From: Candidatus Omnitrophota bacterium
GTDB lineage: Bacteria; Omnitrophota; Gorgyraeia; Zapsychrales; Fredricksoniimonadaceae
DNA length: 64,000 bases
Direction of reading: 5' to 3'
Assembly: GCA_016201795.1 (NCBI GenBank)
Contig: JACQCF010000020.1
Location: 5,651-69,650, forward strand
Each line of letters starts with the position of its first letter. Positions within the stretch are counted from its first letter, which is position 1. Below, piece by piece: positions 38,445 to 62,251 of the stretch. The notes under the pieces were generated by a model. That model had not been told where the DNA came from. It searched no databases and was given only the letters and a program-made list of their open reading frames with translations. Made by a program: the position numbers and the translations under genes.

Positions 38445-39023
38445 ATGTCTAAAGAGACTGTTGAAGAAAAGTGGAAAGTGCTTCAAAAATCCGCAGCCAC
38501 CCCTGTTTCCTTGAAGCAAGAATCATCTGCCCACAAATTTTTTAGTTTTTTTTCTATTGCCGAGCTCAATAGAATTTTATGGATCGCGACGGCGGTTTGC
38601 GCTGTTATTTTAATCGTTGAACTGTATTGGGGTTTTTTTCTGCTGAATAAGAAGATGGACTTTTCTGAGGAAGTCAAAACAAGTTCTCATCAACAAGAAA
38701 CCAATCTTCCTCAGGTTAAGGATGTTAAATATTACATCGACAGCCTCGGCAATCGCAATATTTTTAAACCTTATGACATTGAGCTTGGCAAAGCCGCGGT
38801 AGGAGAGCCGAATTTAGCCAGGCTTTTGTCCAAATATAAACTGGTGGGCGTGGCCTGGCTCGATCTTCCGGAATCGGCTTCGATCATGGTGGAAGATACC
38901 CGCACCAAAGCGACGCATTTTCTAAAAACCGGCGAACAATTAGAAGGCGTAACGGTCAAAACCATCTATACGGATAGAGTGGTCTTTAGTTACGAGAATG
39001 AGGAAATAACCATTAAGCTATGA
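38445..39023 (+). CDS. PilP/GspC-like secretin-associated protein (N-terminal TM plus periplasmic beta-domain)
   Basis: Single TM (ILWIATAVCAVILIVELYWGFFLL). C-terminal domain with the YKLVGV...GEQLEGVTVKTIYTDRVVF pattern typical of PilP/GspC HR domains. Stop overlaps the secretin start. Confidence 0.4.
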   Translation: MSKETVEEKWKVLQKSAATPVSLKQESSAHKFFSFFSIAELNRILWIATAVCAVILIVELYWGFFLLNKKMDFSEEVKTSSHQQETNLPQVKDVKYYIDSLGNRNIFKPYDIELGKAAVGEPNLARLLSKYKLVGVAWLDLPESASIMVEDTRTKATHFLKTGEQLEGVTVKTIYTDRVVFSYENEEITIKL

Positions 39024-40666
39024 TCAAACGCATTTTTAAACCCAGATTGATTTGGTTGGTAGGGGCGTTTGTGATCATGCCGATGATTTTTTTCAAGCTT
39101 TACGCTTGGTCTCAGGAGGCGGCCTCTGCCGTGGCTCAGGCAAATGCCGGCGTCGAGCTTCCCAAGCCGATCATTTTAACCGAGCCCAAGGAGCCTCTGG
39201 AAGACCGCATGATACGTAAAATCACGCTGGATGTGCGTGATATGAACGTCGTCGACGTCATTAAATTCCTGGCCCAAAAAGGTGAATTTAACGTGGTGAT
39301 TTCGGCTCCTGTAGACGGCCGTACCACCGTGCTTTTGCATGCGGTCGCCATTAAAGACGCGCTGGATATCATTGCGGTATCAAATAAATTGGCCTATCAC
39401 GTTCAAAATGACATTGTGCAGGTGATGACCGCTGCCGAATATGAAGCGATGTATGGTAAACAATTCAGCGATAAGACCGAGGTGAGTATTATTCATTTGC
39501 AATACTCCAAGCCCAGTTATGTGCTGGCTGCTTTGGATAATATGAAAAGCAATATTGGTAAGATCATTATCGATGAAGACACCGGCACCGTAGTTTTGGT
39601 CGATACCCCGCCGTCTATTATGGTCATGAAGAAAGCTATTGAACAGATTGAACGTCCTCTAGATACGCTCGTCTACGATTTAAAATATGCCAAGGCGGAT
39701 GTGGTGGCGGAAAAATTGCGCTCCCGTATTGATGCCAAGGCGGTGGGTTCCATCACGGCGGATGAGCGCTCCAATCAAATCTTGGTGCGCGTGTTCCCCG
39801 GCCGTCACGATGAGGTAGAAAAAGTGATCCGCAGTCTGGATGAGCCGACCAGAGAGGTTTTGATTGAGGCTCGCATATTGCAGGTGATTTTAAAACCCAA
39901 TTATGACGCGGGTATTGATTGGTCAAGCCAGATTTTTAATAATGGCAAGAACAAATTTTCTTTTAAGAATATCGATTTGAATGAATCAGGCCTTGCGGCC
40001 GCTAGTGATAATTTGGCATCGACTTTCAGCAGAATTGCTGTTGGTAATGTCAACACTCAGGATTTCATGATGGCGTTGCGTTCTTTACAGCAGGTCAGCG
40101 ACACCAAAATTCTCTCCAGCCCTCAAATTTTGGTGACCAATAACGACGAAGCCAAAATTCATATCGGAGACACGGTTCCTTACATCATTTCCACCACCAA
40201 TGGTACCGGAGATAATGCGATCAAAAGCGAGGATGTGCGTTTCATTGACGTTGGTTTGAAATTGAATGTCACTCCTACCATTAACGACGACGGCATGGTG
40301 ACAATGCATCTGCGTCCGGAAATTTCTTCCGTGGTCGGACGCATTACCTCTCAAGCGGGCGGTATCCCTCAGGTGAACAAAACGGAAGTGGAGACTGCGG
40401 TCATGGTACATGATGGTATGACGATTATCTTAGCAGGCTTACGCAAGGAAGATAAATCGCATACGAAAAAAGGTTTCCCTGTGCTCATGGACCTGCCTTA
40501 TCTGGGTAATTTCTTTTCGCGCACCTCTGATAGTATTACATCGACGGAAATCGTAATTTTAATCACCCCGCACATTGTTAAGGGTACGGATGATTACACG
40601 AAAGTGACCGGCACGATCAAACCGCCCAAGAAGTATGAGGAGAATCTTCAATCATCGCCACCGTAG
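39020..40666 (+). CDS. gspD: Type II secretion/type IV pilus secretin (GspD/PilQ family)
   Basis: N-terminal TM/signal, N0/N1-like domains, C-terminal secretin domain (KILSSPQILVTNNDEAKIHIGDTVPY...PVLMDLPYLGNFFSRTS...IVILITPHIV). Confidence 0.85.
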   Translation: MIKRIFKPRLIWLVGAFVIMPMIFFKLYAWSQEAASAVAQANAGVELPKPIILTEPKEPLEDRMIRKITLDVRDMNVVDVIKFLAQKGEFNVVISAPVDGRTTVLLHAVAIKDALDIIAVSNKLAYHVQNDIVQVMTAAEYEAMYGKQFSDKTEVSIIHLQYSKPSYVLAALDNMKSNIGKIIIDEDTGTVVLVDTPPSIMVMKKAIEQIERPLDTLVYDLKYAKADVVAEKLRSRIDAKAVGSITADERSNQILVRVFPGRHDEVEKVIRSLDEPTREVLIEARILQVILKPNYDAGIDWSSQIFNNGKNKFSFKNIDLNESGLAAASDNLASTFSRIAVGNVNTQDFMMALRSLQQVSDTKILSSPQILVTNNDEAKIHIGDTVPYIISTTNGTGDNAIKSEDVRFIDVGLKLNVTPTINDDGMVTMHLRPEISSVVGRITSQAGGIPQVNKTEVETAVMVHDGMTIILAGLRKEDKSHTKKGFPVLMDLPYLGNFFSRTSDSITSTEIVILITPHIVKGTDDYTKVTGTIKPPKKYEENLQSSPP

Positions 40667-40685
40667 TTGAAGCGGAGAAAATTTT

Positions 40686-41447
40686 ATGGGCAAACACGCC
40701 CGTTCTAAAATTCAAAACCTTGCGATGGCAGTTATTGTATTAGTTTTCGGCGTAGGTACCAACATGGGTGCTCGAGCTCAAGATATCGAAGGCATGCCGC
40801 CGCCGGCCAATACCGATTCTGCTTCGCAAGCACAGCAGGAGCGCGAACAATTTGTCAAAGAACTCCGTCGCCTGGAGAATCTCAACAGAAAATATGCCAA
40901 GGAAATCGAAGATATCAAAACGCTTTTAACCGAGAAAGACGAGGATTTTCAAAAGCGGATGCAACAATTGGAAGACAAGCTGGCCCAGCAGCAGGATGAG
41001 AAAAATAAACAGGCGCTGGTGCAGGAACAAAATCAACAAACCACCAAAGAATTGGAAGACAAAACCAATGAAATGCTTTCCGAAGACAGTGATTTGGACA
41101 TTGACGATGAGCATTTTAAAGAGGAACTCGCCAAAGCTCATTACAACATGGGCAATATTTATTTTGAACGCGGGGAATATCAAAGAGCGGTGGTGGAATT
41201 CTACCAAGCGGTTGATTTAACCCCCAAGGATGCGGATACTCATTACAATTTAGCCTTTGTCAGCGGGGAATATTTGGGTGATCAGGAGACGGCCTTGAAG
41301 CATTATCAGTTGTATTTGTATTTGAATCCTAACGCCGACGATGCCAATGCAGTGAAAGAGAAGATCATGCAGGCCAAACTTCATTTGCGCTCCAAATTGA
41401 ATTCGCCGTTAGATAAAGACAATGGTAATTATAATGTGACTCGTTAA
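40686..41447 (+). CDS. Secreted coiled-coil/TPR-repeat protein
   Basis: Signal peptide, Q/E-rich coiled coil, C-terminal TPR units (AHYNMGNIYFERGEYQRAVVEFYQAVDLTPKDADTHYNLAF). Confidence 0.6.
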   Translation: MGKHARSKIQNLAMAVIVLVFGVGTNMGARAQDIEGMPPPANTDSASQAQQEREQFVKELRRLENLNRKYAKEIEDIKTLLTEKDEDFQKRMQQLEDKLAQQQDEKNKQALVQEQNQQTTKELEDKTNEMLSEDSDLDIDDEHFKEELAKAHYNMGNIYFERGEYQRAVVEFYQAVDLTPKDADTHYNLAFVSGEYLGDQETALKHYQLYLYLNPNADDANAVKEKIMQAKLHLRSKLNSPLDKDNGNYNVTR

Positions 41448-41485
41448 CACCTTAAGCAGCGCGACACAGATGGGTTTTCAAATCT

Positions 41486-43060
41486 ATGATTCTGCAGTTG
41501 CCAAAAATCGGCTTGGCTCTTGGCCTGGCGTGTGTGTTAACCAGCGCCGCGCAGGCCAATAATTTATCCATTACCAATGTTGCTTTAGCCTCTCGTGATC
41601 CGGCTACCAAATCCCTGGTCATTAAATTCGACGTTAGCTGGAATAATTCCTGGCACAATAAAATTAATCACGATGCCGTATGGCTGACGGTACGATTAAA
41701 TGGCACCCAGGATGCCACCACTCATAAGAGGCTTTGCCAAATTTTAGCTTCCGGTCTTAACCCCGCAGGTTCTTCGACGGGAACAGCCGACAAGCTGGAA
41801 TTTTATGTGCCATCTGATAAAAGAGGAGTGTTTTTGCGTCGTTCTTCTAACGGAAATGTCGCCAATATGGCCACTCAGGGGGCGCAATTAACCGTCGATT
41901 ACAGCAGTTGTGGTTTTTTGGACACTGACCAGGTGTATGCCAGCGTGTTTGGTCTGGAAATGGTCTTTATTCCTCAAGGTGATTTTTATACCGGTGATTA
42001 CAACACCAGCACGGCTTCCTTAAATCAGGGTTCCGCGGATAACAACCCTTGGCATATCATCAGTGAAAACGCCATTCCCGTCACTAATTCGGCTTCTGGT
42101 AGCTATTACTATGTGTCCAATAATAATGCCGGCGAATATGCAACGGGAACCAGTTTTAATATTGCGGCCGCGTTTCCCAAAGGTTACGCTCCATTTTATG
42201 TGATGAAATATGAATTAACCGAAGGGCAATGGGTAGAGTTTATCAATTCTTTGGGATCGTCCGCCCAGCGCGCTAATCGCGATATAACGGATAATGAGCA
42301 TAAAAATTCCGACACTGTCATGGCTCGCAACACCATCAGTTGTGCCGGTAGCCCTTTGGTCTGTTCCACTCAGCGTCCTTGGCGGCCGGTGAGTTTCTTA
42401 AGTTGGATGGATTTAGCCGCCTTCTTAGACTGGGATGCGCTTCGGCCTATGACGGAGTTGGAATTTGAAAAAATTGCCCGCGGTCCGCTTTTACCGGTGC
42501 AAGGAGAGTATGTTTGGGGTACAGGGGATATCGCCGCCGCCGTTCATATGAGCGGTAATGAGGATGGCACAGAGACAATAACGGATGCCAACGCCAACGC
42601 CAATTATAACAATACGACCTTTAGCGGAGGAGATGCTTCCCAGGGCGCATCATATCAAATTGGTCCTTTGCGGGTGGGGATTTTCGCGTCCAACGCCACC
42701 ACCCGCGTGATGGCAGGAGCCAGTTATTACGGGGTCATGGACATTTCCGGTAATCTTAAAGAACGTGTGGTGACCATCGGTAATGCCGCTGGGGGGACAT
42801 TTGATGGACAGCATGGTGATGGCGTTCTTTCTTCCATGACAGGTTTTGAGGGTAACGCTGACACCGCCCACTGGCCGGGGTTAGATGCAATCTCTGGCCG
42901 CGGAGTGACAGGGGCCAACGGCTCTGGTTTTCGCGGCGGCTCTTGGTCGGATAGCGGTAATTTATTAAGAATTTCTGATCGTACAGAAGCGGCTTTAACG
43001 TTAACAGAGGCCACCGCTAGTTTTGGTGGTCGCGGAGTTCGCACTTATGATGGCAATTAA
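41486..43060 (+). CDS. Secreted FGE/SUMF1-domain (sulfatase-modifying-factor-like) protein, paralog 1
   Basis: Signal peptide. C-terminal region has SUMF1/FGE hallmarks (YVMKYELTEGQWVEF; RPVSFLSW; RPMTELEFEKIARG; FRGGSWSD). About 45% identical to the downstream paralog across the full length. Confidence 0.65.
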   Translation: MILQLPKIGLALGLACVLTSAAQANNLSITNVALASRDPATKSLVIKFDVSWNNSWHNKINHDAVWLTVRLNGTQDATTHKRLCQILASGLNPAGSSTGTADKLEFYVPSDKRGVFLRRSSNGNVANMATQGAQLTVDYSSCGFLDTDQVYASVFGLEMVFIPQGDFYTGDYNTSTASLNQGSADNNPWHIISENAIPVTNSASGSYYYVSNNNAGEYATGTSFNIAAAFPKGYAPFYVMKYELTEGQWVEFINSLGSSAQRANRDITDNEHKNSDTVMARNTISCAGSPLVCSTQRPWRPVSFLSWMDLAAFLDWDALRPMTELEFEKIARGPLLPVQGEYVWGTGDIAAAVHMSGNEDGTETITDANANANYNNTTFSGGDASQGASYQIGPLRVGIFASNATTRVMAGASYYGVMDISGNLKERVVTIGNAAGGTFDGQHGDGVLSSMTGFEGNADTAHWPGLDAISGRGVTGANGSGFRGGSWSDSGNLLRISDRTEAALTLTEATASFGGRGVRTYDGN

Positions 43061-44681
43061 GCGCATGGCATTAACGATACTGGTTGTTGTTGGTTTGATG
43101 ACGCTAGCTATGGCTAATGATTTGCAGTTGAGCCATTTGAATGTGGTCAGTACAAATACAGCCGCGCAAACCATGACCTTCAGTTTTGATTTAACGCAGC
43201 AAAACAGTTGGCGTACCACCACCAATTATGATGCCGTGTGGATTTTTATGAAATATTCCACCAACGCAGGAATAACTTGGCAACATGCCACTATGGCCGC
43301 CAACGGTATCAATCCCACCGGATTTTTAGCGCCGGATCATTTTGAAATCGATGTCCCACCGGATCAAAAAGGATTTTTTTTGCATCGTAGTGATTATGGC
43401 TCTGGAACTATTTCACCTCAAGGGATTCAATTTGTCTGGGATTATCGCCAGGACGGTCTCACCACAGCCACAGCCCAAGCCGCCAACACTCTTCATAAAA
43501 TTTTTGGCATTGAAATGGTCTATATTCCAGCCGGCGCTTTTTATGCGGGGGATGGCAACAGTTCCGCAGATTATCATTTAAAGGCTGGCTCCGCGGATAA
43601 TAATCCCTGGTATATTCAAAGTGAAAATGCCATTACCACCACCAACGCAGTTTCCGGCGGTTATTATTATGTCGCCAGCAGTGCTAATGGCGAGAACAAT
43701 ACGGGTGATATTTTTTTAATTCCCGCTTCTTTCCCCAAAGGTTACCACGATTTTTATTTAATGAAATATGAATTAACACAAGGCCAGTGGGTGGGATTTT
43801 TTAACACTCTCTCCCATGCGGCTAAATTGAATCATGACATTACTTCCGCCGATTTAGGAGGTAAAAATTCTCAAGGGGCGGTTTATCGCAATACCATTGC
43901 TTGGGATTCTTCTAATGTTTCTTCCCCAGCGACGACCTCGAGGCCTTGGCGTCCGGTCAGTTTTGTCTCCTGGCCGGATGTGGCGGCCTATGCGGCGTGG
44001 GCAGCGCTGCGTCCTATAACGGAATTGGAATTCGAGAAAGCCGCTCGCGGTAAAGACATTGCCCCTGTACCGGATGAATTGGCCTGGGGGACTGCTTCTT
44101 ACACGGCGGTGACTTCTTCAGATATCGTTCCTTCCAATAGCGATGAAAATGGAACTGAAACCATTCAAAACAGCGCGGCCAATTTGAGCCGTAATTCATT
44201 GGGATTTACTTCCGGTGATGGCAGGGCCTTGGGGCCTGCTCCTAATCAAAGCGGGCCTTTGCGGGCAGGGATTTTTGCGGCTACTTCTAATAATAGAATC
44301 AACAGTGGAGCCGGATTCTACGGCAATATGGAGCTTTCCGGAAATTTGGCAGAGCCAATGGTTACGATCGGCCGTGTGCAGGGCCGCCAATTTTTGGGTA
44401 CCCATGGCAATGGGCAATTGACGACGCTGGCAGGGTTTGAAGGTTTTGCTCCTAATACGGATTGGCCGGGCATTGATACCGCCAATGCCAGCCGGGGAAT
44501 AAGACAGACCGTGGGCATCGGTTATCGCGGGGGCGATTTCGCCTCTTCTAATATTCGTACTTATGAGCTGTCTTCGCGGACGTATGCGGCTAAAGACCCT
44601 GATAGTCAGGGATGTTTTCAGCGTTATGATGCCAACTGCGCTGTTTTCTATGGTGGTCGCTTGGGCCGAACAGCCCCTTAA
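43047..44681 (+). CDS. Secreted FGE/SUMF1-domain protein, paralog 2
   Basis: Signal peptide (MMAIKRMALTILVVVGLMTLAMA). Motifs YLMKYELTQGQWVGF, RPVSFVSW, RPITELEFEKAARG, YRGGDFAS. Start overlaps paralog 1 stop. Confidence 0.65.
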   Translation: MMAIKRMALTILVVVGLMTLAMANDLQLSHLNVVSTNTAAQTMTFSFDLTQQNSWRTTTNYDAVWIFMKYSTNAGITWQHATMAANGINPTGFLAPDHFEIDVPPDQKGFFLHRSDYGSGTISPQGIQFVWDYRQDGLTTATAQAANTLHKIFGIEMVYIPAGAFYAGDGNSSADYHLKAGSADNNPWYIQSENAITTTNAVSGGYYYVASSANGENNTGDIFLIPASFPKGYHDFYLMKYELTQGQWVGFFNTLSHAAKLNHDITSADLGGKNSQGAVYRNTIAWDSSNVSSPATTSRPWRPVSFVSWPDVAAYAAWAALRPITELEFEKAARGKDIAPVPDELAWGTASYTAVTSSDIVPSNSDENGTETIQNSAANLSRNSLGFTSGDGRALGPAPNQSGPLRAGIFAATSNNRINSGAGFYGNMELSGNLAEPMVTIGRVQGRQFLGTHGNGQLTTLAGFEGFAPNTDWPGIDTANASRGIRQTVGIGYRGGDFASSNIRTYELSSRTYAAKDPDSQGCFQRYDANCAVFYGGRLGRTAP

Positions 44682-44690
44682 TACAACGGC

Positions 44691-47297
44691 ATGTCTAAAC
44701 AGGGTTTAAAATTGAACACACCAAACCATCGGCGGATATTTCTTGTCTTGGGAGCTTTTGGGGTATTTGGTTTTATTGTCTCTCAAGCTCTGGCGCAATA
44801 CAGCGGCGGCAGTCAAACCTTCACCGCTGAGGATACCATCGGCAGTGATATTTACAAAGGCGGCGCGCAAACCACCTCCACGTTTGCCAGCTCTGCTTCC
44901 ATTGGGTCTTTGTCCTATGGGACAGCGACTAAACTTGTCTTTACTACTTCTCCCTCAACCACCAAACACTTCTTGAAGTTTGAACGTCAGCCGGTGGTGG
45001 CTATTGAAGATGTCAATGGTAATGTGGTCGCCGGCGATAACAGCACACAGGTCACTATACAAATCCTCAACAATCCTGGCGATGGGGCTCTCTTGGGTAC
45101 GGCCACCATCACAGCTGCTCATGGTTTGGCGCAGTTTACGGATTTGCAAATTAACCGTCCAGGTCAGATGTATACTTTAAAAGCGACGGCGGCTGGCTTG
45201 ATTGACGGTATTTCTGCTAATTTTGATATTTTATCTGGTACAGGGGCCAAAGCTGTCGCCGTCTGGGACAATGCAAGTAGTGCTTTTAATATTTATACCT
45301 GGGTTGAATCGGACAACCAACGTGTTGCATTAGCTGCGGGTAATACATGTACTATTACAATTTTTAAAGTCAATGGCACTACTGAAACGGCGCCGTCCAT
45401 GAGTCTAGATACCACCCAAAATTGGTTTAAATCTGATACTGAATGGACTCCAGTAACGCCTGCAAATTCTTACTTTATCGACATCTCTATTACCAGCGCT
45501 GCTGCCTGCAGCGCTAATGCCGGTAATATTTGTCAGACGTATCAGCCTTTGGATCTTGTGAAATCCACCGTTGAAGCCATTAAAACAAAAACTGACACCA
45601 TCAACTGGCAGGATATCGGGGTTATTAAAGGCAGCACCAACACCATCAACTGGCAGGATATCGGGGTTTTAAAATCAACCGACAGCGCCATTAAGACTGT
45701 CACCGATACTATACCGACCACCATTAACTGGACTGATATTGACCGTATGACTAAAGCGGCCGTGAATTGGACGGATATTTCCCGCCAGTCTTTAGTAGGT
45801 GTTAACTGGAATGATATGATGGTATTAACCACTATCGGTATTAATTGGAGAGACTTCAATACTCTGACCAAAGCGGGTGTGAATTGGAATGATTTAGGGG
45901 TGTTGACGACCAAAGGTGTTAATTGGACAGATTTTCAGAAATTTGCTAGCCTTGGCATAAACTGGACCGATATGGATAAGCTTTTCAAAGCCGGAGTCAA
46001 CTGGAGTGATTTTGCTTTGATGGGTAAAACTAGTATTAACTGGTATGACGTAGCCATTATGTCCGGTGCCAGAATCAATTGGTCGAGTCAAATTAACTGG
46101 TTTAGCCTGGCGGCCTTGACGACTTCGATGGTGAACTGGAATGATTTGGCGGTTCTGTCCATTAATCACATCAACTGGGATGATTTTGGAGTATTAAGCA
46201 AGACAGGGGTCAACTGGTCAAGCGTGGGGGTTTTATCAACGGCCAATATCAATTGGGCGGATATTCAAACATTATCCAAGGCAGGTGTTAACTGGGGCGG
46301 GATCGCTACTTTAGCCAATAGTGGAGTCAATTGGACTAACATTGCTCAGTTGTCTTTATCCAATGTCAATTGGACCGCCTTCGATGTTCTGGGGGCGGCA
46401 GGCGTTAACTGGACCGATATTGCCTCTCTGAGCCTGAAGGGAATTAACTGGACGGATATCTCGACTTTAAGTACCCGGGGAGTTAATTGGGATAATCTCA
46501 GAACTATCTCTACCAGCGGTGTGAACTGGACGGATTTGAATGCTATGACCACCTCTGGTATTAACTGGTTGAGCTTCGGGTCTTTATCTAACGCCGGGAT
46601 TAACTGGGCTGGTATTGATATCCTTTCTGATGCCAATGTTAATTGGTATGGCGTTGGACAAATGTCGACGAACAATATCAATTGGAGTAATTTTAGCGAA
46701 TTATCCACCGCCAATATCAACTGGGAGGATGTGAATGCGCAAAGCCGTGGGGGAATCAACTGGATTGATTACGCCTCCATGACCCACGGCGGGGTTAACT
46801 GGTTTGATCCCGCACTGCAGAGTACCGCGCATATTAATTGGGCAGGGATAAATACCTTAATGAGCAGGGTGGGCTCTATTAATGATGTCTCGAAAAAGGG
46901 CAAGACCAGCGCGGATGCTGCCTTAGGGTATACTCAGGATATTTTGCGTGATTTAGGGCTCAATGGTGTCACGCCGGATGTCTATACCAAATTGAAACTC
47001 CTGGAAAATTCTATTGAGGACATCAAGACATCAGCCCAAGATTTAACCAGCGGCCAGGGCAATTCAGGCAATATGGCTAAACAGATGATTGATAAACTCA
47101 ACAACATATTGGCCAGACAGGCCAAAGCAGCTGGTTTGCAAGAAACGATGAGTGTATCTCAACTGTCTGCTAAAGAATCCAAAGATACACAGAAGGTTAA
47201 CGAAAAATTGGAAGAAATCACGGCCAAGGTCAATGCCTTGCGTGAGGCGATGCAGGTTCAAGATGTGGTCGTCAAGGCCTGGTATGAAAGTGAATAA
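44691..47297 (+). CDS. Large membrane-anchored/secreted protein with N-terminal Ig-like region, ~37 tandem 13-residue N-W repeats and a C-terminal coiled coil
   Basis: N-terminal signal/anchor (IFLVLGAFGVFGFIVSQALA). Repeat consensus S-x-x-G-[VI]-N-W-x-[DN]-[IFL]-x-x-[LM], about 37 copies. C-terminal coiled coil (KLNNILARQAKAAGL...EEITAKVNALREAMQ). Confidence 0.75.
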   Translation: MSKQGLKLNTPNHRRIFLVLGAFGVFGFIVSQALAQYSGGSQTFTAEDTIGSDIYKGGAQTTSTFASSASIGSLSYGTATKLVFTTSPSTTKHFLKFERQPVVAIEDVNGNVVAGDNSTQVTIQILNNPGDGALLGTATITAAHGLAQFTDLQINRPGQMYTLKATAAGLIDGISANFDILSGTGAKAVAVWDNASSAFNIYTWVESDNQRVALAAGNTCTITIFKVNGTTETAPSMSLDTTQNWFKSDTEWTPVTPANSYFIDISITSAAACSANAGNICQTYQPLDLVKSTVEAIKTKTDTINWQDIGVIKGSTNTINWQDIGVLKSTDSAIKTVTDTIPTTINWTDIDRMTKAAVNWTDISRQSLVGVNWNDMMVLTTIGINWRDFNTLTKAGVNWNDLGVLTTKGVNWTDFQKFASLGINWTDMDKLFKAGVNWSDFALMGKTSINWYDVAIMSGARINWSSQINWFSLAALTTSMVNWNDLAVLSINHINWDDFGVLSKTGVNWSSVGVLSTANINWADIQTLSKAGVNWGGIATLANSGVNWTNIAQLSLSNVNWTAFDVLGAAGVNWTDIASLSLKGINWTDISTLSTRGVNWDNLRTISTSGVNWTDLNAMTTSGINWLSFGSLSNAGINWAGIDILSDANVNWYGVGQMSTNNINWSNFSELSTANINWEDVNAQSRGGINWIDYASMTHGGVNWFDPALQSTAHINWAGINTLMSRVGSINDVSKKGKTSADAALGYTQDILRDLGLNGVTPDVYTKLKLLENSIEDIKTSAQDLTSGQGNSGNMAKQMIDKLNNILARQAKAAGLQETMSVSQLSAKESKDTQKVNEKLEEITAKVNALREAMQVQDVVVKAWYESE
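45590..46860 (+). repeat. In-frame tandem 39-bp (13-codon) repeat array encoding the G[VI]NWxD repeats
   Basis: Degenerate at DNA level but invariant AAYTGG (N-W) core recurs every 39 bp. Includes one perfect 28-bp direct duplicate (CACCATCAACTGGCAGGATATCGGGGTT at 45596 and 45641). Confidence 0.7.
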
Positions 47298-47299
47298 TT

Positions 47300-48607: not shown

Positions 48608-48619
48608 AGCGGTGAGGCT

Positions 48620-50485: not shown

Positions 50486-50704
50486 ATGTTAGCCGACACA
50501 TTTATTATTCTTACGGTCATGTTTATTGCGGTCATGGGGCCATCGGTGGTGGTGGCCATTTTAGGCTATGCGGTCATCAAAGCTTTAAGCCGTAATCCGT
50601 CGGCCGCTTCCAAAATTTTTATGGGCATGGCGATCATGCTGGTGTTTGTCGAGGCCATTGCGGTGGTAGCGATTTTAATCATTTTTCAGATGTTTGGTAA
50701 GTAG
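50486..50704 (+). CDS. F-type ATPase c-subunit (proteolipid)
   Basis: 72-aa helical hairpin with RNP polar loop and conserved TM2 carboxylate (MLVFVEAIAVVAILI). Confidence 0.7.
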   Translation: MLADTFIILTVMFIAVMGPSVVVAILGYAVIKALSRNPSAASKIFMGMAIMLVFVEAIAVVAILIIFQMFGK

Positions 50705-50710: not shown

Positions 50711-50938
50711 ATGGGATTTCGTTTATGGTATGAAGGCATTCTTTTTATGGTGTCGTTCGGGCTGATTGTCGGTTTGCCGTGTTTTTTCGTGGCGGTTTTA
50801 GGATCAAAAATGATCAATGATTTGGGTTATTTTCCGACCAAGGCGGCTAAGATTCAGCTGAATATGTCATGGAAAATTTTTATGGTCGAGGTTGTTGCAT
50901 TTTTGATGCTGATCGTTTTTTTTCATATTTTTAGCTAA
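50711..50938 (+). CDS. Second c-subunit-like hairpin protein (c' paralog or AtpZ/AtpR-like)
   Basis: 75-aa two-TM hairpin with a glutamate in TM2 (IFMVEVVAFLMLIV). Divergent from the upstream c-subunit. Confidence 0.4.
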   Translation: MGFRLWYEGILFMVSFGLIVGLPCFFVAVLGSKMINDLGYFPTKAAKIQLNMSWKIFMVEVVAFLMLIVFFHIFS

Positions 50939-50947
50939 TCAAGGGGC

Positions 50948-51721: not shown

Positions 51722-54026
<2,305 letters not shown>

Positions 54027-54028
54027 AT

Positions 54029-55732: not shown

Positions 55733-55736
55733 CACC

Positions 55737-56942
55737 ATGCCTTCTTATTTGTACAAAGCTAAAAAAAATTTTGCTGAGACCGTCACCGGCCGCATGGAGG
55801 CCCAGACCCAGGAAGAAGCTCTGGATTTGATTCATCAGCTGGGGCTGGTGCCGGTATCATTGGAAGAAGTAGCTGGAGGTATTTTAGTCAGAGACATACG
55901 TCCTCGTCGCATTAGCCTCAAAGAAATTTATTATTTTACTAAACAATTGGGAGGCCTTATTAAATCCGGCGTAGCTTTGCTTAAAAGCCTTGAGGTTATT
56001 AGCACCCAGACTAAAAATGTTTATTTGGCCAAAGTCATCAGCGATATCGCCCTGGCGGTCAAAAGCGGCCGTTCGTTTTCTCTGACTTTAAGCGATTATC
56101 CCGAAATTTTTTCTCCTTTATATGTGGCCATGGTTCAGGCGGGGGAAGAAATTGGGCATTTGCGCGGTGTGCTTTTGGATGTAGCTGAATTTCAAAAGAA
56201 ACAGCAGGAATTTTCTTCTAAAGTAACCGGCGCCCTGGTTTATCCGCTACTCATGCTGGCGATAGGTCTTTTAACAGTCTCCTTTATCCTTACCTTTGTT
56301 TTGCCTAAAATCGCCGTCATCTACGCAGATACTTCCCAGAGCCTGCCATGGCCGACTTTGGTGATTACGCAAGTCAGCTATTTTTTTCAAACTTTTTGGA
56401 TTTTTTTGGTGATGGTCGTCGTCATCGCTACGATCATCTTTAACCGCTGGTACCAGAGGCCGTCGGCAAAAATCATCATTGGTCAATGGTTTTTGCATAT
56501 GCCTTTTTTGAGAGAGTTGGTTGTCAAGACGGATTTAGTCCGTTTTACCCGCACGACGCATTTGCTTCTTAACAGCGGTTTGACGTTGGTGCGCTCGATG
56601 GAAGTGGCGCTTCCAACCATCACTAATCCATTGTTAAGAGAAGATTTATCCAACTGCGTGGGCGGTTTAAAATCGGGAGAAAGCTTGGGGAGTTGTCTGA
56701 AGCAGTCTTTACTGGTACCGGATATGATCCGGCAAATGCTCTCTGTAGCGGAAGAAAGTGGATCTTTGCAAGAGTCCTTGGGGGACATTGCCGAAGCTTA
56801 TGAAGCAGAGATCAATGAAACCATCCGTTTGATCACCACTTTGCTGGAGCCGGCTATGATCCTGACGGTGGGGCTGGTGGTGGGGTTTATCGTTTTTGCC
56901 ATGCTGCTGCCGATTTTTTCCATGGATATCCTAGCCCGTTAG
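55737..56942 (+). CDS. gspF: Type II secretion/type IV pilus inner-membrane platform protein (GspF/PilC family)
   Basis: 401 aa, two GspF-type repeats with 3 TM helices. Adjacent to gspE. Confidence 0.8.
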   Translation: MPSYLYKAKKNFAETVTGRMEAQTQEEALDLIHQLGLVPVSLEEVAGGILVRDIRPRRISLKEIYYFTKQLGGLIKSGVALLKSLEVISTQTKNVYLAKVISDIALAVKSGRSFSLTLSDYPEIFSPLYVAMVQAGEEIGHLRGVLLDVAEFQKKQQEFSSKVTGALVYPLLMLAIGLLTVSFILTFVLPKIAVIYADTSQSLPWPTLVITQVSYFFQTFWIFLVMVVVIATIIFNRWYQRPSAKIIIGQWFLHMPFLRELVVKTDLVRFTRTTHLLLNSGLTLVRSMEVALPTITNPLLREDLSNCVGGLKSGESLGSCLKQSLLVPDMIRQMLSVAEESGSLQESLGDIAEAYEAEINETIRLITTLLEPAMILTVGLVVGFIVFAMLLPIFSMDILAR

Positions 56943-57061
56943 TGTTTCGTGACATTTTATGTGGAAAGTCTTTACATGATCGATTTTTTGGTTAAAACTG
57001 ATAGTCAGGATACTTTCAGTGATCCCGTCGGTATTGCGTGGAAGCGTTGAGGTATAATACA

Positions 57062-57472
57062 ATGAAACATAGAGGCGGTTTTACTTTGGTGGAAATTATG
57101 CTGGTGGTGATTATTATCGCGGCTTTATCGGCGATGATTATCCCGCGTTTGGTTGGCCGCGGGGAGCAGGCCAAAGTCAAAATCGCCAAAAGCGATATTG
57201 CAGCCAATATCCCCACGGCTTTAAAGCTTTATGAGTTAGATAACGGTATTTTTCCAACCACCGCCCAGGGTTTAAACGCTTTGCGCGTTAAGCCGACTAA
57301 CAATCCCATCCCTCAAAATTGGAACGGGCCTTATCTGGAAAAAGGTCCTATTGATCCCTGGGGCCGGTCGTATGTTTATGTATCCCCTGGCGAGCACGGC
57401 TTGGATTATGATCTTTCCTCTAAAGGCAAAGATGAAACCTCCGACAAGGACGATGTCGTCAATTGGCAATAA
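57062..57472 (+). CDS. gspG: Major pseudopilin GspG (type IV pilin-like, prepilin leader)
   Basis: MKHRGG|FTLVEIMLVVIIIAALSA class III signal with G-F-T-L-x-E. GspG-type motifs (QAKVKIAKSDI, GPYLEKGPIDPWGRSYVY). GAGG RBS 9 nt upstream. Confidence 0.8.
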   Translation: MKHRGGFTLVEIMLVVIIIAALSAMIIPRLVGRGEQAKVKIAKSDIAANIPTALKLYELDNGIFPTTAQGLNALRVKPTNNPIPQNWNGPYLEKGPIDPWGRSYVYVSPGEHGLDYDLSSKGKDETSDKDDVVNWQ

Positions 57473-57854
57473 AGAAAAAGGGTTTACGTTTGTTGAGGTC
57501 ATGGTCGCGCTGGTGATTCTCTCGGCCGGCATTGTCATGATTTATAAGAGTTTTTTTCTATACGCGGATTACCTGTCTTATTTAACCTGTCGCCTGCACG
57601 CCACCCAAATGATGGAGAGCAAAATTGCTGATATCGAACGTTCTTTTCGCCAAAGTCAGGGATCTTCTTTTGACACAGGAGCCATGACAGAGACGGTTAA
57701 GATCAATCATAAACGGGTTGATTTTAATTACACGATTAATACGACTTCCTTATTGGGCCTGGAGGGTGTTTATCGTATGGATATCACCCTGGCCTGGCAT
57801 GACGGACATCGTTTGATGCAATTGTCCCGTGCGAGTTTATTAACCAAAATATGA
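57453..57854 (+). CDS. Minor pseudopilin (GspH/GspI-like)
   Basis: Prepilin-type N-terminus KEKG|FTFVEVMVALVILSAG. Start taken at internal Met overlapping the gspG 3' end. Confidence 0.6.
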   Translation: MSSIGNKEKGFTFVEVMVALVILSAGIVMIYKSFFLYADYLSYLTCRLHATQMMESKIADIERSFRQSQGSSFDTGAMTETVKINHKRVDFNYTINTTSLLGLEGVYRMDITLAWHDGHRLMQLSRASLLTKI

Positions 57855-58444
57855 AACCTAAACCCAGGGCATTTACTTTAGTGGAAGTATTGTTAGCCGC
57901 TGCTCTGGTGGCGATGGTCGGGATGGCTATTTTCCAGGCCTTTGCCAATGGTTTGAAATTATGGACTAAAGCGCAGCGTTTAAATCGGGAAGCCGAAGTG
58001 GCTATTTTTTTGGATAGAATGGAGCAAGATTTAAGATCAACCCCTCTCATTTCCGGAATCAGTTTTAAAGGTATAGCCACGCAGATTTCTTTTCCGGCAG
58101 TGGTGATGACCAGGGCTGACAGAAAATCTTCGATGGCCTCGGAAGTGTTTATTGATCAAATCGGGGCTGTGCAGTATCGTTTTGATGCCCTTGAGCATAC
58201 GATTTTTCGACGGCAGACCAATTACGCGCAGGCACTCAAAGGTCAATGGGGTCAAGAATTGCCGGTCGTCGGTGGTATTGATGAGTTCAATTTTTATTAT
58301 GAAGTCGCGTCCGATAAAGGATTTTTGATGAAGCCGCAGAGCGATGAAGTGATCCCTTCGGGTGTTATGGTTAAGATGCATTTTAGCGATGACAGCGGGG
58401 AGCATCATCTCAGGCGCTATTTTAGGATACCGGTGGGCGGTTAA
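57851..58444 (+). CDS. Minor pseudopilin (GspJ-like)
   Basis: Prepilin-type N-terminus PRA|FTLVEVLLAAALVAM. Start/stop overlap with flanking genes. Confidence 0.6.
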   Translation: MKPKPRAFTLVEVLLAAALVAMVGMAIFQAFANGLKLWTKAQRLNREAEVAIFLDRMEQDLRSTPLISGISFKGIATQISFPAVVMTRADRKSSMASEVFIDQIGAVQYRFDALEHTIFRRQTNYAQALKGQWGQELPVVGGIDEFNFYYEVASDKGFLMKPQSDEVIPSGVMVKMHFSDDSGEHHLRRYFRIPVGG

Positions 58445-59475
58445 TGGCAACGAAAAATATGCTACTTAAACAGCGTCAGGGATTTGTGCTTATTTTTGCC
58501 CTGTGGGTTTTGGGGTTTTTGACTGTTTTGGCACTAGGGGTTGCCGCCGGTGTTCGCCAGAAAATCGTTTTGCTGCAAAAGCTTGATGAACGAAGCCGCA
58601 TGCACCATGTGCTGGAAGGGGCAGTGAAATATAGCGCGGCCTATCTGATCAATCAATTAAGCACGTCCGGATTTATCTACAACCCTGCTGTTAAAATGCA
58701 TTTGCATAATAACCCCCATCAATTTGGTCAGTTTGATCTAGGGGGGGATACAGCTTCGATCAGTTATACCTTGGCTGATGAAGGGTCTTCTCAAGAGCGG
58801 TTTGGCGTGGTTGATGAAGAACGGAAAATCAATCTTAATACGACCAATACAATCATTTTACAACGATTGATTGAGAGAGTTCTGGTTGTGAAACCTGATG
58901 AGGCCAAAGAATTAGCCCAAGCCATTTTAGATTGGCGTCACTACGGTCAAAGTCAGGTCAAAGGGTTTTTTAGCGATGAATATTATGAGAATTTAGAGTA
59001 TCCTTATGCGAAAAAGGATGCGGATTATGAAACCCTTGATGAGTTATTGCTGGTCAAGGGTATGACCAAAGACAAATATGAAAAGCTGATGGATGATGTG
59101 ACGATTTATGGCCAGGGCAAGGTCAATATCAATACAGCCCCGGCGCAGGTATTATATGCTTTAGGTCTACAGGATGCGCTCATCGATAAGATTCTTGAAG
59201 TCCGTCGGGGGAAAGATCAGAGTGAGGGGACCATGGATGATCATATATTTTTCAAAACTTTTGATGTGGCCAGTGAAGTCAATGCGATCATTAAACTTGA
59301 AGACGGAGAAATTCATGCCATCGATGCGTTAAATATACAAAATCTACTGACCACCAATTCCTATTATTTTTCTGTTTTGTCCCAAGCTCATTTAGCGCAC
59401 CGTCGCTCATCCCAAAAAATACGTGTGGTGATTTCTTCCAGAGAAAACAAGATTGTCTATTGGAGTCAGCGGTGA
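58444..59475 (+). CDS. gspK: Type II secretion minor pseudopilin GspK
   Basis: N-terminal hydrophobic segment QRQGFVLIFALWVLGFL. GspK hallmarks: RKINLNTTN, KVNINTAPAQVLYAL (HhH-like INxNTA). Confidence 0.7.
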   Translation: MATKNMLLKQRQGFVLIFALWVLGFLTVLALGVAAGVRQKIVLLQKLDERSRMHHVLEGAVKYSAAYLINQLSTSGFIYNPAVKMHLHNNPHQFGQFDLGGDTASISYTLADEGSSQERFGVVDEERKINLNTTNTIILQRLIERVLVVKPDEAKELAQAILDWRHYGQSQVKGFFSDEYYENLEYPYAKKDADYETLDELLLVKGMTKDKYEKLMDDVTIYGQGKVNINTAPAQVLYALGLQDALIDKILEVRRGKDQSEGTMDDHIFFKTFDVASEVNAIIKLEDGEIHAIDALNIQNLLTTNSYYFSVLSQAHLAHRRSSQKIRVVISSRENKIVYWSQR

Positions 59476-59564
59476 GTTAAAGGCAGTATCCTTCTATCAA
59501 AATAATTGTTTTTTGCATGGGGTAGAGAATTTTTGGCTATAATAAATTGAACTTAAACTAAGGA

Positions 59565-61007
59565 ATGTGCATGTTCGGCGCCGACCAGCGTATTTTAAGC
59601 TTTTCACTTAATGAAACTATTATCAAACTTGCTCAGGTGAGCTCTGGTGGACTCGTCGAGAAAATAGCCTGGGCTTTAGCGGCAGAGGCCTCGCCGGAGG
59701 TTTTGGGTCAGACTCTCAAAATACTTTTGAATGGGTTTGACCATAAGGCTATGGTCGTTTGTGTGATTCCCGCCAGCGCCGTTACCTCCAAAACTATTGA
59801 AGTGCCTTCTTTGGATCCTCAGGAAATCAAATCGATTCTCAATTTGCAGGTTAACCGCCATACGCCTTATTCGCGCCAAGAGGTTCTGGTGGGTTCCATC
59901 AATTTGGGGTTGGCCTCTGCCCATCAGACCAAGGTGCTTTTGGTCATTGCCCATCGCCATGTCATCAAAGACCGTCTGACGGTTTTAGAAAAGGTATCGC
60001 TTAATCCTGATAAAATTCTTTTTGTTCCCGAAGGTATTGGTCGTTTGTACGCCGGGGGATTGAATTTAAAGAAGGATTCATTGCCGGTGGGAATCATTGA
60101 TGTGGCTTTAACATCGGTTAATTTCATAGTGGTCTGCCGTGGCTCGGTGGTTTTTTGCCGCAGTATTCCTATCGGGATCAAACAGATGATCGAAAGCCAG
60201 GAAGCTGTGCTTAAGCTTTTGGAGGAAATCAATAAATCCATCGCCGCCTCCAGCGGTGAAGACGCTCAAGCCGCGGTAGCCTCTTTTGTTGTCACCAGCG
60301 ATCATGAAGTGGTCAGAAATATGTTACCCCTTTTGCAGGAAAGCCTCAAAGCCGAGGTTCGTTTAAGTCCTTATGTGAACTTGATCCAAGCCGGATCAGT
60401 CAAAAGTAAATTGCAACAAGATTTTGCCGACGACTCTTTCCTGGATGTCATCGCACCGGCGCTCACCCTTGCCAAATGCGAAGTCAATCTTATGCCCGAG
60501 GAAATGGTTCTCAAAAAGACTATCGAGAAACAAAGTCAGGAAGCGACCAAGGCAGGAATCGCAGCGGTACTCATGATGGTTTTGTTAGGTAGCATTATTT
60601 TTGGTAGGATTTATTTTAAAGATATATTTTTGAATAAGAATTTAAGAGAACAATTTGCCGGTCAAGCACAAGAAGTGCAAAAGCTCCAGGAGAGTTTAAA
60701 TAAAACGAAAATTGTGCGGCAGTATCTGCAAAGTCGCATGATCAGTTTGGACATTATCCATGAGCTTTATAGAATCACTCCCGTTCAAATTTATTTAAAT
60801 ACTGTTGCCCTGGAAGAAGACGGAACATTGACGGTCAGCGGCATTTCCGATTCTATGTCGCAGGTGTTTTCTTATGTGAAAGCTTTGTCTGATTCGTCTT
60901 TGTTTAAGAATGTGAAAACGAAATCTACGACGACCAAGAAAGATAACGGTCAGGACGTGGCTGCTTTCGAGCTGAGCTTAAAAGTGGAAGAATCCCTCAA
61001 GGAGTAA
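59565..61007 (+). CDS. GspL-like / PilM-PilN-fusion assembly protein (cytoplasmic actin-like domain, TM, periplasmic domain)
   Basis: 480 aa. N-terminal actin-like fold as in PilM/GspL, one TM near residue 330 (IAAVLMMVLLGSIIF), coiled coil and periplasmic domain. Confidence 0.55.
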   Translation: MCMFGADQRILSFSLNETIIKLAQVSSGGLVEKIAWALAAEASPEVLGQTLKILLNGFDHKAMVVCVIPASAVTSKTIEVPSLDPQEIKSILNLQVNRHTPYSRQEVLVGSINLGLASAHQTKVLLVIAHRHVIKDRLTVLEKVSLNPDKILFVPEGIGRLYAGGLNLKKDSLPVGIIDVALTSVNFIVVCRGSVVFCRSIPIGIKQMIESQEAVLKLLEEINKSIAASSGEDAQAAVASFVVTSDHEVVRNMLPLLQESLKAEVRLSPYVNLIQAGSVKSKLQQDFADDSFLDVIAPALTLAKCEVNLMPEEMVLKKTIEKQSQEATKAGIAAVLMMVLLGSIIFGRIYFKDIFLNKNLREQFAGQAQEVQKLQESLNKTKIVRQYLQSRMISLDIIHELYRITPVQIYLNTVALEEDGTLTVSGISDSMSQVFSYVKALSDSSLFKNVKTKSTTTKKDNGQDVAAFELSLKVEESLKE

Positions 61008-61562
61008 ATGGTGATTATCAAATTTATTTCCGGACTTTCCGATCAGGGCAAGAAACTATTGGTGATTGCTTTGATGATCGTGGTGGCTGCCTTGTTTGAT
61101 CGTCTTTTGATTGATCCTACCATGTCGTGGCTTTCGACCATTGATGAACAAATCCGCAAAGAAGAAGAGGCTATCAAACAGAATGTACATTTTTTAAGTT
61201 ATAAGGACAAAATTTTAAGAGAAAGTCAGGCGGTTGACCCCTATGTGACTCACCATCTGCCCAAGGAAGAGGAGATCATTGCCGCTTTTTTAAAGAAAAT
61301 CGAAATAGTGGCGACTAAAGCCAATGTGACGCTAGTCAAAGTAACGCCTTCCGCAGCTCAACAGGAGCCCTATGATTTAAAATATTCCGCGGATGTAGAA
61401 TGCTCTGGTCAATTGACCGATGTGGTGACCTTCATGCATTTGGTGAATAGCTCCAATGAATTAACGAAGGTCGTTAAGTTTAATCTGGGCTCCCCTAAAG
61501 CAGAGACAGATGAAATTAAAGCCACCATGACCATCTCCAAAATCATTGTCACTCAACGCTGA
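61008..61562 (+). CDS. GspM/PilO-like bitopic assembly protein
   Basis: 184 aa, N-terminal TM (LLVIALMIVVAALF), coiled coil, ferredoxin-like periplasmic domain. Directly follows the GspL-like gene. Confidence 0.5.
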   Translation: MVIIKFISGLSDQGKKLLVIALMIVVAALFDRLLIDPTMSWLSTIDEQIRKEEEAIKQNVHFLSYKDKILRESQAVDPYVTHHLPKEEEIIAAFLKKIEIVATKANVTLVKVTPSAAQQEPYDLKYSADVECSGQLTDVVTFMHLVNSSNELTKVVKFNLGSPKAETDEIKATMTISKIIVTQR

Positions 61563-62251
61563 TGTTACCGACACCAAAACGAATTAAAATTTTTTGTTGG
61601 GCGATATTGTCTCTTTTAGTTTTTTATCCTAACCTGGGCCGTGGCGCCACCATTCGTGATTTATATGAAGCCGCCGTGAATGCCTACACTCAAAGGCAGT
61701 ATGACCACGCCATTGAGCTTTATCAAGAAATCACCAAAGCAGCGCCGCAATTTGCTCCCGCCTACATTGGCCTGGGTCTGGCTCTTAAAGCCAAGGGAGC
61801 GGATATAGAAGAAGTTTTGTATTATTACAAAACAGCCACGGAAAAGGATTCCACCAACGCTCAGGCCCTAGAACAGTTGGGGCGGTTATATTATTCCATC
61901 AATCGATTAGACAAAGCCGAGGTTTGCTTTCAGAAGGCTTTAAAAATCGACCCCCACATGACCAATGCGAAGTTATCTTTGGCATGGATTGGTTTAGTGG
62001 GCAAAAAACCTAACCCACCGCGCGCCATTATCTATTTTCAAGATGTGCTCAAGAGTTCACCAACACCCAACGCTTATTTTGGTTTAGGGATAGCCTATTT
62101 CGCGGATAATCAAAGAGAAAAAGCCTTAGATATGATTACGCAGTTAAAGGGTATGGGTCAGGACGATTTAGCCGGTAAATTAGAAAAGGCCGTACGTGAA
62201 AACCAAAAAGTCATTTTAGATGAGAATACCCCTTCAGCTCAAAAACTTTAA
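61562..62251 (+). CDS. Secreted TPR-repeat protein
   Basis: Signal peptide and at least four TPR units (AYIGLGLALKAKG; AQALEQLGRLYYSINRLDKAEVCFQKALKIDP; AYFGLGIAYFADNQREKA). Confidence 0.65.
   Translation: MLPTPKRIKIFCWAILSLLVFYPNLGRGATIRDLYEAAVNAYTQRQYDHAIELYQEITKAAPQFAPAYIGLGLALKAKGADIEEVLYYYKTATEKDSTNAQALEQLGRLYYSINRLDKAEVCFQKALKIDPHMTNAKLSLAWIGLVGKKPNPPRAIIYFQDVLKSSPTPNAYFGLGIAYFADNQREKALDMITQLKGMGQDDLAGKLEKAVRENQKVILDENTPSAQKL

Follow-up and report, generated by a model that had tools for sequence, protein, structure and literature searches.

Organization of the gene cluster

The stretch of DNA analysed here, a 64-kb window from a Candidatus Omnitrophota genome, carries an unbroken string of 23 tightly packed genes on the + strand at 38445-62251, in which the seven genes of an F-type ATPase are embedded among those of a type IV filament machine that resembles type II secretion systems (T2SS). 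The string was established from the listing of open reading frames (ORFs) and their translations; families were assigned with Pfam and NCBIfam models, and the equivalog cut-offs are NCBIfam bit scores. From 5' to 3' the genes are:

38445-39023, + strand: GspC/PilP-like bitopic protein (PF11356 T2SSC, E 0.0025; 18 bits, below the cut-off of 27)
39020-40666, + strand: outer-membrane secretin (PF00263, E 6e-49; PF03958)
40686-41447, + strand: coiled-coil/TPR protein with signal peptide, no lipobox (TPR Pfam families)
41486-43060, + strand: secreted FGE-sulfatase-domain protein 1, FGE1 (PF03781, E 2e-11, partial domain; PDB FGE matches, E 5e-5)
43047-44681, + strand: secreted FGE-sulfatase-domain protein 2, FGE2 (PF03781, E 3e-15)
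44691-47297, + strand: NW-repeat envelope protein, 868 aa (repeat register; AlphaFold2 (AF2) model)
47300-48607, + strand: Unk435, 435 aa (no Pfam or NCBIfam match; Omnitrophota-specific family with 123 homologs)
48620-50158, + strand: F-type ATPase alpha (TIGR00962, 506 bits against 484)
50164-50466, + strand: epsilon, beta-sandwich only, 100 aa (PF02823 at residues 8-81; 31 bits against 67)
50486-50704, + strand: subunit c (c1), a 72-aa hairpin (PF00137, 28 bits against 24)
50711-50938, + strand: second c-type proteolipid (c2), 75 aa, a paralog of c1 (no Pfam match)
50948-51709, + strand: fused b-delta peripheral stalk (PF00213, OSCP, C-terminal; weak PF00430)
51722-52576, + strand: gamma (PF00231, E 3e-27; TIGR01146, 77 bits against 194)
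52602-54026, + strand: beta, catalytic (TIGR01039, 527 bits against 463)
54029-55732, + strand: GspE/PilB-type assembly ATPase (PF00437, E 4e-128; MshEN domain PF05157; tetracysteine motif)
55737-56942, + strand: GspF/PilC platform protein (PF00482, E 2e-50)
57062-57472, + strand: major pseudopilin GspG, leader MKHRGG/FTLVE (TIGR01710, 142.4 bits; cut-off 88.85)
57453-57854, + strand: minor pseudopilin, GspI-like (N_methyl motif; TIGR01707, 22 bits, below cut-off)
57851-58444, + strand: minor pseudopilin, GspJ-like (N_methyl motif; TIGR01711, 27 bits, below cut-off)
58444-59475, + strand: GspK-like minor pseudopilin (PF21687, E 6e-12; NF037980, 84 bits against 130)
59565-61007, + strand: PilM-PilN fusion of GspL-type architecture (PF11104, PilM_2, at the N-terminus; PF05137 at the C-terminus)
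61008-61562, + strand: PilO/GspM-like bitopic protein (PF04350, 25 bits against 22; GspM model, 20 bits)
61562-62251, + strand: terminal TPR protein (TPR Pfam families; PilW/Tgl matches far below cut-off)

A block of about 13.4 kb, made up of the first TPR gene, the two FGE genes, the NW-repeat and Unk435 genes and the seven ATPase genes, thus lies exactly between gspD, i.e. the secretin gene, and gspE. From the gspC-like gene through alpha the gaps are -4, 19, 38, -14, 9, 2 and 12 nt; the first is the overlap of the gspC-like stop with the secretin start, and the fourth holds for the FGE2 start at ATG 43047 and becomes -38 with the alternative TTG start at 43023. From alpha through gspG they are 5, 19, 6, 9, 12, 25, 2, 4 and 119 nt, with the beta stop (54026) 2 nt ahead of the gspE start (54029). 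The 119 nt are counted to the ATG at 57062 and would be 95 nt if the GTG at 57038 were used; a GAGG Shine-Dalgarno sequence lies 9 nt upstream of gspG. Further 3' the pseudopilin genes overlap, 89 nt precede the PilM-PilN gene, and the last two gaps are 0 and -1 nt. The continuous co-directional string claimed by a first-pass annotation of this DNA is confirmed, with the gaps of 119 nt (gspG) and 89 nt (PilM-PilN) as its exceptions. Its proposed check for internal terminators that would split the block also went in favour of one string, i.e. a terminator-like hairpin was found in none of the + strand intergenic gaps of the cluster.

A promoter-like site is located at 38379-38406, just 5' of the first cluster gene. 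Furthermore, perfect TATAAT hexamers occur in the gaps before gspG (57053-57058) and before PilM-PilN (59538-59543) as possible internal promoters, both of them without a good -35 box at 16-18 nt. However, matches to a consensus of this kind do not demonstrate a function. The Rfam scan of the window returned two tRNAs, both outside the cluster (2043-2116 and 30898-30971), and no regulatory RNA. Because almost all of the 64-kb window is encoded on the + strand, strand alone does not delimit the cluster.

The F-type ATPase subunits

The rotary ATPase gene set of the first-pass annotation is confirmed as to its F-type genes, but the 481-nt space after epsilon in fact holds c1 and c2. As read from the sequence, the catalytic motifs of the complex are intact, namely the P-loop GDKGTGKT and the arginine finger SRVG in alpha and GGAGCGKT, GERIREG and EELSKED in beta, which include both P-loops and the catalytic Glu motif. 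Alpha and beta exceed the canonical equivalog cut-offs; the other subunits fall short of theirs, gamma and epsilon with the values listed above, delta with 38 against 57.5 bits and c with 19 against 44 bits.

Two elements of regular F-type enzymes are missing. The alignments of alpha with PDB chains begin at chain residues 3-99; those with the top-ranking full-length alphas of bacteria (2qe7, 6q45, 8u1h, 4xd7) begin at 20-29, which indicates that the canonical N-terminal segment of approximately 20 residues is absent. This segment is the part of alpha that binds delta. Epsilon is without the C-terminal helical hairpin, which inhibits ATP hydrolysis in bacterial enzymes. The b-delta fusion is the single peripheral stalk gene of the cluster; its match to the N-ATPase b model TIGR03321 spans the full length and scores 48 bits, which is below the cut-off.

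Subunit c1 displays the RNP loop in 78/78 sequences and the helix-2 Glu56 in 74/78, and as read from sequence it is without the glycine-rich packing motif of helix 1. Its paralog c2 was matched to c1 by HHalign with 98% probability (E 1.6e-13) and with the Glu aligned; the Glu is present in 50 of 62 c2 sequences, and the gene, found in 61 of 76 loci, has been lost from the most distant ones.

The NW-repeat protein, Unk435 and the FGE paralogs

The NW-repeat protein consists of a signal peptide, two immunoglobulin-like domains, a 13-residue repeat present 30 times with the consensus A-G-[IV]-N-W-x-D-[IL]-x-x-[LM]-[ST]-x, and a C-terminal coiled coil. The immunoglobulin-like domains were confidently modelled by AF2 at aa 80-290. 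The solenoid fold that had been suggested for the repeats is not confirmed, since the predicted local distance difference test (pLDDT) values are only 30-47 there and the modelled fold is unreliable. Homologs in several relatives have at least 200 repeats and more than 2,800 aa and still run off the 10-kb flank, compared to which the window copy with its 868 aa is unusually short. No tandem identity at the DNA level was found in the window gene, which does not favour an assembly collapse; a short allele is more likely. Most contigs of the related metagenome-assembled genomes (MAGs; loci L001-L080 in our numbering) end 3-6 kb 5' of alpha, within the NW-repeat gene. Hence, the gene is a systematic assembly breakpoint, and public MAGs underestimate how long it really is.

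N-W-[S/T] sequons were counted in 43% of the window repeat units and in 34% of 5,612 units in relatives, against an S+T background of 18%. A gene of the STT3/PglB oligosaccharyltransferase family is located at 62211-64000 on the - strand, convergent with the cluster and sharing 41 nt with the 3' end of the last TPR gene; its product has 853 aa in a Logan contig (L123, 1082-3643). GT2 glycosyltransferases are encoded at 36263-38382, just 5' of the cluster. These sequence features are suggestive only, but the NW-repeat fibre might be N-glycosylated.

Unk435 was modelled by AF2 with a pLDDT of 82. The model comprises a signal peptide and two modules, each of a seven-strand beta-sandwich plus a three-helix bundle, followed on the C-terminal side by a long helix, a membrane anchor and a short basic tail; a fold search against PDB gave no informative match. 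FGE1 and FGE2 are paralogs with 44% identity, and the domain of FGE1 belongs to the C-type-lectin-like fold family.

Conservation across related genomes

The GTDB species genomes were scanned with an alignment of alpha, which resulted in 80 species-level loci with 54-81% alpha identity. Approximately 50 of them are labelled as Omnitrophota/Omnitrophica or as an Omnitrophota genus, the other approximately 30 carry the automatic labels uncultured Planctomycetales/Planctomycetia or uncultured bacterium. The locus itself is encoded in an Omnitrophota genome, as its alpha shows 100% identity with a protein from a Candidatus Omnitrophica MAG, and more than 100 cluster-level relatives of alpha exist at 67-85% identity. 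Across the whole alpha family, with its identity range of 54-85%, the synteny is common to the members. The window proteins were compared by BLASTP with the ORFs of the related loci, and the counts give the loci with the gene over the loci that reach its position:

NW-repeat, 5' of the ATPase: 64/67 loci
Unk435, directly 5' of alpha: 71/72 loci
c1: 77/77 loci
c2: 61/76 loci
b-delta: 74/74 loci
gamma: 71/71 loci
beta: 68/68 loci
gspE, next after beta: 62/62 loci
gspF: 57/59 loci
gspG: 56/57 loci

One order was found in all loci, i.e. NW-repeat, Unk435, alpha, epsilon, c1, (c2), b-delta, gamma, beta, gspE, gspF, gspG and the pseudopilins, and the same order is present in 41 metagenome contigs from independent assemblies. 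The clustering is more than chance, given that 80 species-level genomes have the core order in common. The MAG JACPXL01 (NC_groundwater_836) even possesses two complete paralogous NW-repeat/Unk435/ATPase/gsp loci (L071 and L076); neither copy showed an epsilon or c2 gene in the BLAST comparison.

The adjacency of secretion, cargo-like and ATPase genes could be lineage-specific noise or an assembly artefact. MAG contigs often break within the repeat gene, the repeat protein of the window is unusually short, and the FGE genes are not kept at depth, which are points in favour of this explanation. Nevertheless, it is effectively refuted by the recurrence of the order in independent assemblies (80 species plus the 41 metagenome contigs). 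Moreover, Logan assemblies reproduce the 3' end of the window locus exactly, and the repeats lack the DNA-level tandem identity that would favour collapse.

A second scan anchored on the secretin revealed that the order gspC-secretin-TPR-FGE1-FGE2-NW-repeat is kept in close relatives. The gspC-like gene is found 5' of the secretin in all of them, and the first TPR gene follows the secretin in L034 and L081-L111. L034 is a deeper relative, in which secretin and TPR still lie 5' of the repeat gene. However, close relatives also keep the glycine-cleavage, LplA and glycosyltransferase genes 5' of the cluster, and since these upstream housekeeping genes are equally syntenic, synteny among close relatives says little about function.

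The first-pass annotation had grouped the two FGE proteins, the NW-repeat protein and Unk435 as cargo candidates and had made co-conservation with the secretion genes the test against lineage-specific noise. This test turned out positive for NW-repeat, Unk435, the F-type ATPase and gspE/F/G, which co-occur in 56-77 of the loci reaching the position, but not for the FGE genes. The latter are kept in close relatives only, and their role as cargo is not supported; in L034, three tandem signal-peptide paralogs of approximately 190 aa occupy the FGE slot between the TPR and repeat genes instead (2698-4527). Judged by their linkage, the NW-repeat protein and Unk435 behave like fixed components that belong to the ATPase module, and not like interchangeable cargo.

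The secretion machine

Most components of the machine resemble those of T2SS without reaching the equivalog cut-offs. The Gsp models score 234 bits against 351 for GspD, 559 against 630 for GspE and 318 against 424 for GspF, and GspK stays below its cut-off as well (see above); they are nevertheless the best or joint-best models for all four proteins. The PilQ model gives 245 bits for the secretin and the PilB model 551 bits for the assembly ATPase, both below cut-off and about the same as GspD and GspE. Gsp-like traits are the GspG equivalog, the set of GspI/J/K-like pseudopilins, the single assembly ATPase, the GspL-type fusion and the C-D-E-F-G...L-M order, in which the PilM/N/O-like genes are placed after the pseudopilins. 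The PilM-PilN fusion is a single gene call in L122, too. We therefore describe the machine as T2SS-like, i.e. as a type IV filament machine that is assigned to neither of the two curated families.

The window ORFs were scanned with these models except for 13 ORFs of the dcw region (15784-20680, 21781-23016, 25937-27340 and 32256-32645). Among the ORFs scanned there is no PilT, PilA-type pilin, GspH or GspO (prepilin peptidase). The missing PilT and prepilin peptidase agree with the first-pass annotation. Of its secretin and complete GspE-F-G-H/I-J-K-L-M set, the secretin, E, F, G, the I/J-like proteins, K, PilM-PilN and the PilO-like protein hold, but GspH was not found among the scanned ORFs and the call of GspC is weak. 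Its view of the TPR proteins as pilotins is a guess, as neither has a lipobox, and the first of them reaches 32 bits against 154 with the PilW model. Its T2SS-like system in a small-celled lineage is borne out, in that the genes encode a T2SS-like type IV filament machine and the lineage comprises ultra-small, putative predators or parasites.

An ordinary type-4a pilus (T4aP) for twitching or adhesion, which is the class given by TXSScan, is another way to understand these genes. The NW-repeat protein, Unk435 and the FGE proteins would then be unrelated neighbours, and the adjacency of the ATPase would reflect phylogenetic inertia. The Pfam matches to PilM, PilN and PilO point in this direction, as do the comparable scores of the PilQ/PilB models, and the unrelated housekeeping genes kept upstream in close relatives demonstrate that local synteny can be inert. 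However, the hallmarks of a type IVa pilus, i.e. a PilA-type major pilin, PilT and a separate pilMNOPQ operon, were not found in the scanned ORFs, and the GspG-equivalog major pilin, the GspI/J/K-like minor pseudopilins and the gene order are of the T2SS kind. Moreover, the linkage persists down to 54% alpha identity, beta is followed by gspE wherever the position is reached, and two full paralogous copies exist in one genome. We regard the ordinary pilus as quite improbable.

The GspE protein has 735-762 aa in several relatives (L014, L026, L034, L050, L055, L056, L061, L069 and L071) compared to 567 aa in the window, which points to an extra N-terminal domain of approximately 180 aa in these distant relatives.

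Possible role of the ATPase

On balance, we lean towards the assumption that this Omnitrophota F-type ATPase/type IV filament locus encodes an attachment or secretion apparatus with the ATPase as its dedicated ATP-driven engine. This reading builds on the observations that these genes are present and stay linked across relatives, that the catalytic motifs are intact and that elements for regulation and contact are missing. In such an apparatus, GspE acting on GspF would assemble a short GspG pseudopilus with an I/J/K cap under the conduit formed by GspC and the secretin. The pseudopilus machine would export or deploy the NW-repeat fibre, delivered by Sec, and with it lectin-like accessory proteins that vary between lineages; fibre and accessory proteins may serve the attachment to host or prey cells. 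Unk435 is predicted to be a periplasmic protein held at the inner membrane by its C-terminal anchor. The F-type complex would represent an ATP-hydrolysing rotary engine dedicated to the apparatus rather than the ATP synthase of the cell. This engine would either turn a membrane rotor that acts on the machine or on the anchor of the fibre, or serve as a local ion pump. By analogy, the co-option of the F1-like X0 ATPases for surface systems in Mycoplasma could serve as precedent for a dedicated engine.

The main rival is a genuine ion-translocating F1Fo complex with subunit a encoded elsewhere, which would pump protons in a cell that lives by fermentation or acetogenesis, or even act as ATP synthase. 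Its place in the gsp operon would then reflect co-regulation or the supply of membrane potential, not mechanical coupling. T2SS secretion needs membrane potential. A subunit a gene was detected by phmmer neither in the cluster and the window nor in the 121 related loci (1.48 Mb), but this search with a single sequence, an approximate E. coli AtpB query, gives a weak negative. Besides gspF, no gene of the cluster encodes a multi-pass membrane protein.

Two candidates related to subunit a were rejected. A gene of approximately 300 aa between gspF and gspG of relatives codes for a secreted HExxH Peptidase_MA-like protein, and Arg11 in the membrane helix of b-delta, considered as substitute for the stator arginine, is not conserved. 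The HExxH gene is missing between gspF and gspG in the window; a Peptidase_MA_2 (HExxH) gene at 25170-25967, which lies in the dcw cluster and is flanked by murG and the mur gene that follows, encodes a protein that is 29-37% identical to the secreted one found between gspF and gspG in 40/56 related loci.

Several points weigh against the dedicated engine, and some of them directly support the ion pump. The ion-binding Glu of c1 (74/78) and its RNP loop (78/78) are under strong selection, for which real ion binding against a subunit a, possibly encoded elsewhere, is the simplest explanation. Alpha and beta pass the atpA/atpD equivalog cut-offs, and their best PDB matches are ordinary bacterial F1 proteins, canonical F1 alphas in the case of alpha. 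The subunit a search is a weak negative, as mentioned. Furthermore, the functional coupling of the ATPase to the secretion machine is inferred from the genes and the location of the NW-repeat fibre from its signal peptide, and the modelled fold of the repeats is unreliable. To our knowledge, there is no precedent for a T2SS that exports a protein of more than 2,800 aa.

A preprint from 2026 on complete Omnitrophota genomes reported alpha/beta in 125/176 but gamma in only 30/176 at strict thresholds, which fits this divergent set as the main F-type genes in many genomes and thereby the ion pump. However, the same preprint found V/A-type ATPases in most Gorgyraeia. Seymour et al. (2023; PMC10066038) set this alpha clade apart from the respiratory Omnitrophota clade. 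Moreover, the seven subunit genes stay together in 80 species without ever including subunit a, whose gene normally lies next to c. The scores of gamma, delta, epsilon and c are far below the equivalog cut-offs, the N-terminal tail of alpha is missing, and c1 is without the glycine-rich packing motif of helix 1. Taken together, we consider the genuine ion pump a serious but unlikely alternative.

A more radical version of the dedicated engine is a rotary motor without subunit a, in which gamma-epsilon and a c1/c2 ring, driven by ATP, would rotate against components of the Gsp-like machine or the anchored Unk435 instead of an ion channel. We put this forward only tentatively and see it as rather doubtful. 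If true, the torque could deploy, tension or move the giant NW-repeat fibre through the secretin, or alternatively drive the disassembly of the pseudopilus in place of the missing PilT. It would then represent an envelope-spanning engine of a new class, serving attachment or motility, in which two ancient motors, F1Fo and the type IV filament machine, are joined.

Other genes of the window

The window further contains riboflavin genes, ligA, xerC/D-like genes, rbfA, truB, ribF, the dcw cluster, glycine cleavage genes and lplA. An ORF at 9808-14283 encodes 1,491 aa with a class-I fructose-bisphosphate aldolase as the sole Pfam match at residues 1015-1369; the first approximately 1,000 residues are without Pfam match, which makes it an unusually long fusion for a glycolytic enzyme. 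The GC skew is positive across the whole window.

Comparison with known systems

The order C-D-E-F-G-(I-J-K)-L-like-M-like, the GspG equivalog, the GspK family protein, the tetracysteine motif of GspE and the single assembly ATPase are shared with canonical T2SS. In contrast to these, GspH and GspO are absent among the scanned ORFs, a PilM-PilN fusion replaces GspL, most components score below cut-off, and the block of 13.4 kb is inserted between gspD and gspE.

With the N-ATPases (atpDCQRBEFAG; TIGR03321-03326), the complex has in common a divergent F-type operon without separate delta gene and the similarity of b-delta to their b model, which is aligned from 1-237 to 1-239 of 246. Membership was rejected, because the scores are far below the exception-level cut-offs, with 463 against 750 bits for alpha, 444 against 752 for beta, 20 against 282 for gamma and 48 against 225 for b. 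The cluster also differs in lacking atpQ, atpR and subunit a and in its gene order, and c1, as read from its sequence, does not show the Na+-binding Gln/Ser/Thr pattern.

Functionally, the closest precedent comes from the Type 2 and Type 3 F1-like X0 ATPases of Mycoplasma (Beven et al., 2012, PMC3369863), which are associated with the gliding motor (PMC11864180) and with antibody cleavage by MIB-MIP (PMC12994834). They share an F1-derived alpha/beta/gamma/epsilon module without subunit a that is genetically tied to a surface system in a small, host-dependent bacterium, and their ATP hydrolysis is thought to power surface proteins. Nevertheless, the complex described here is not a member of these types; all four models gave scores clearly below cut-off (NF045863 396 against 600, NF045858 412 against 850, NF045936 299 against 520 and NF045934 378 against 570). 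Furthermore, the Mycoplasma clusters have no c or b/delta homologs, in place of which they encode unrelated membrane proteins with 3 and 12 helices, and mycoplasmas have neither an outer membrane nor secretin or pilins.

A different locus with a Tad/rcpC-type flank was described in the giant-gene paper by West-Roberts et al., in which the ATPase is not mentioned. The closest match are the loci of Seymour et al. (2023). They reported clusters of a non-respiratory, "symbiotic" F-type ATPase (sF-ATP) beside T4aP genes in Omnitrophota, with both sets not more than 10 kb apart on 57/66 contigs from all Omnitrophota classes and with the symbiotic alpha clade separate from a "respiratory" one. By analogy with Mycoplasma, these authors proposed attachment to or motility on host cells. 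Our locus belongs to the same phylum and likewise has a divergent F-type ATPase adjoining GspE/F/pilin-type genes, at less than the 10 kb used in their study. The central association is hence not new, and the novelty claimed in the first-pass annotation has to be lowered; its interpretation as a whole is supported in part. In the text of Seymour et al. accessible to us, we did not find the subunit inventory, the NW-repeat and Unk435 partners or the Gsp-type order. These authors class the pilus genes as T4aP, whereas pseudopilins and gene order look T2SS-like here.

Throughout this phylum, whose members are ultra-small and probably live as predators or parasites, a rotary F-type ATPase is fixed in a secretion or pilus operon. 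This suggests that two machines might have been fused into one apparatus. If so, there would be a parallel in Mycoplasma, where F1 was co-opted for gliding and for the cleavage of antibodies. In practical terms, annotations as "F0F1 ATP synthase" in Omnitrophota should not count as evidence for chemiosmotic ATP synthesis. Compared to the published association, the kind of finding is unchanged, but the subunit inventory, the invariant repeat and anchored partner proteins and the insertion point sharpen it into testable hypotheses.

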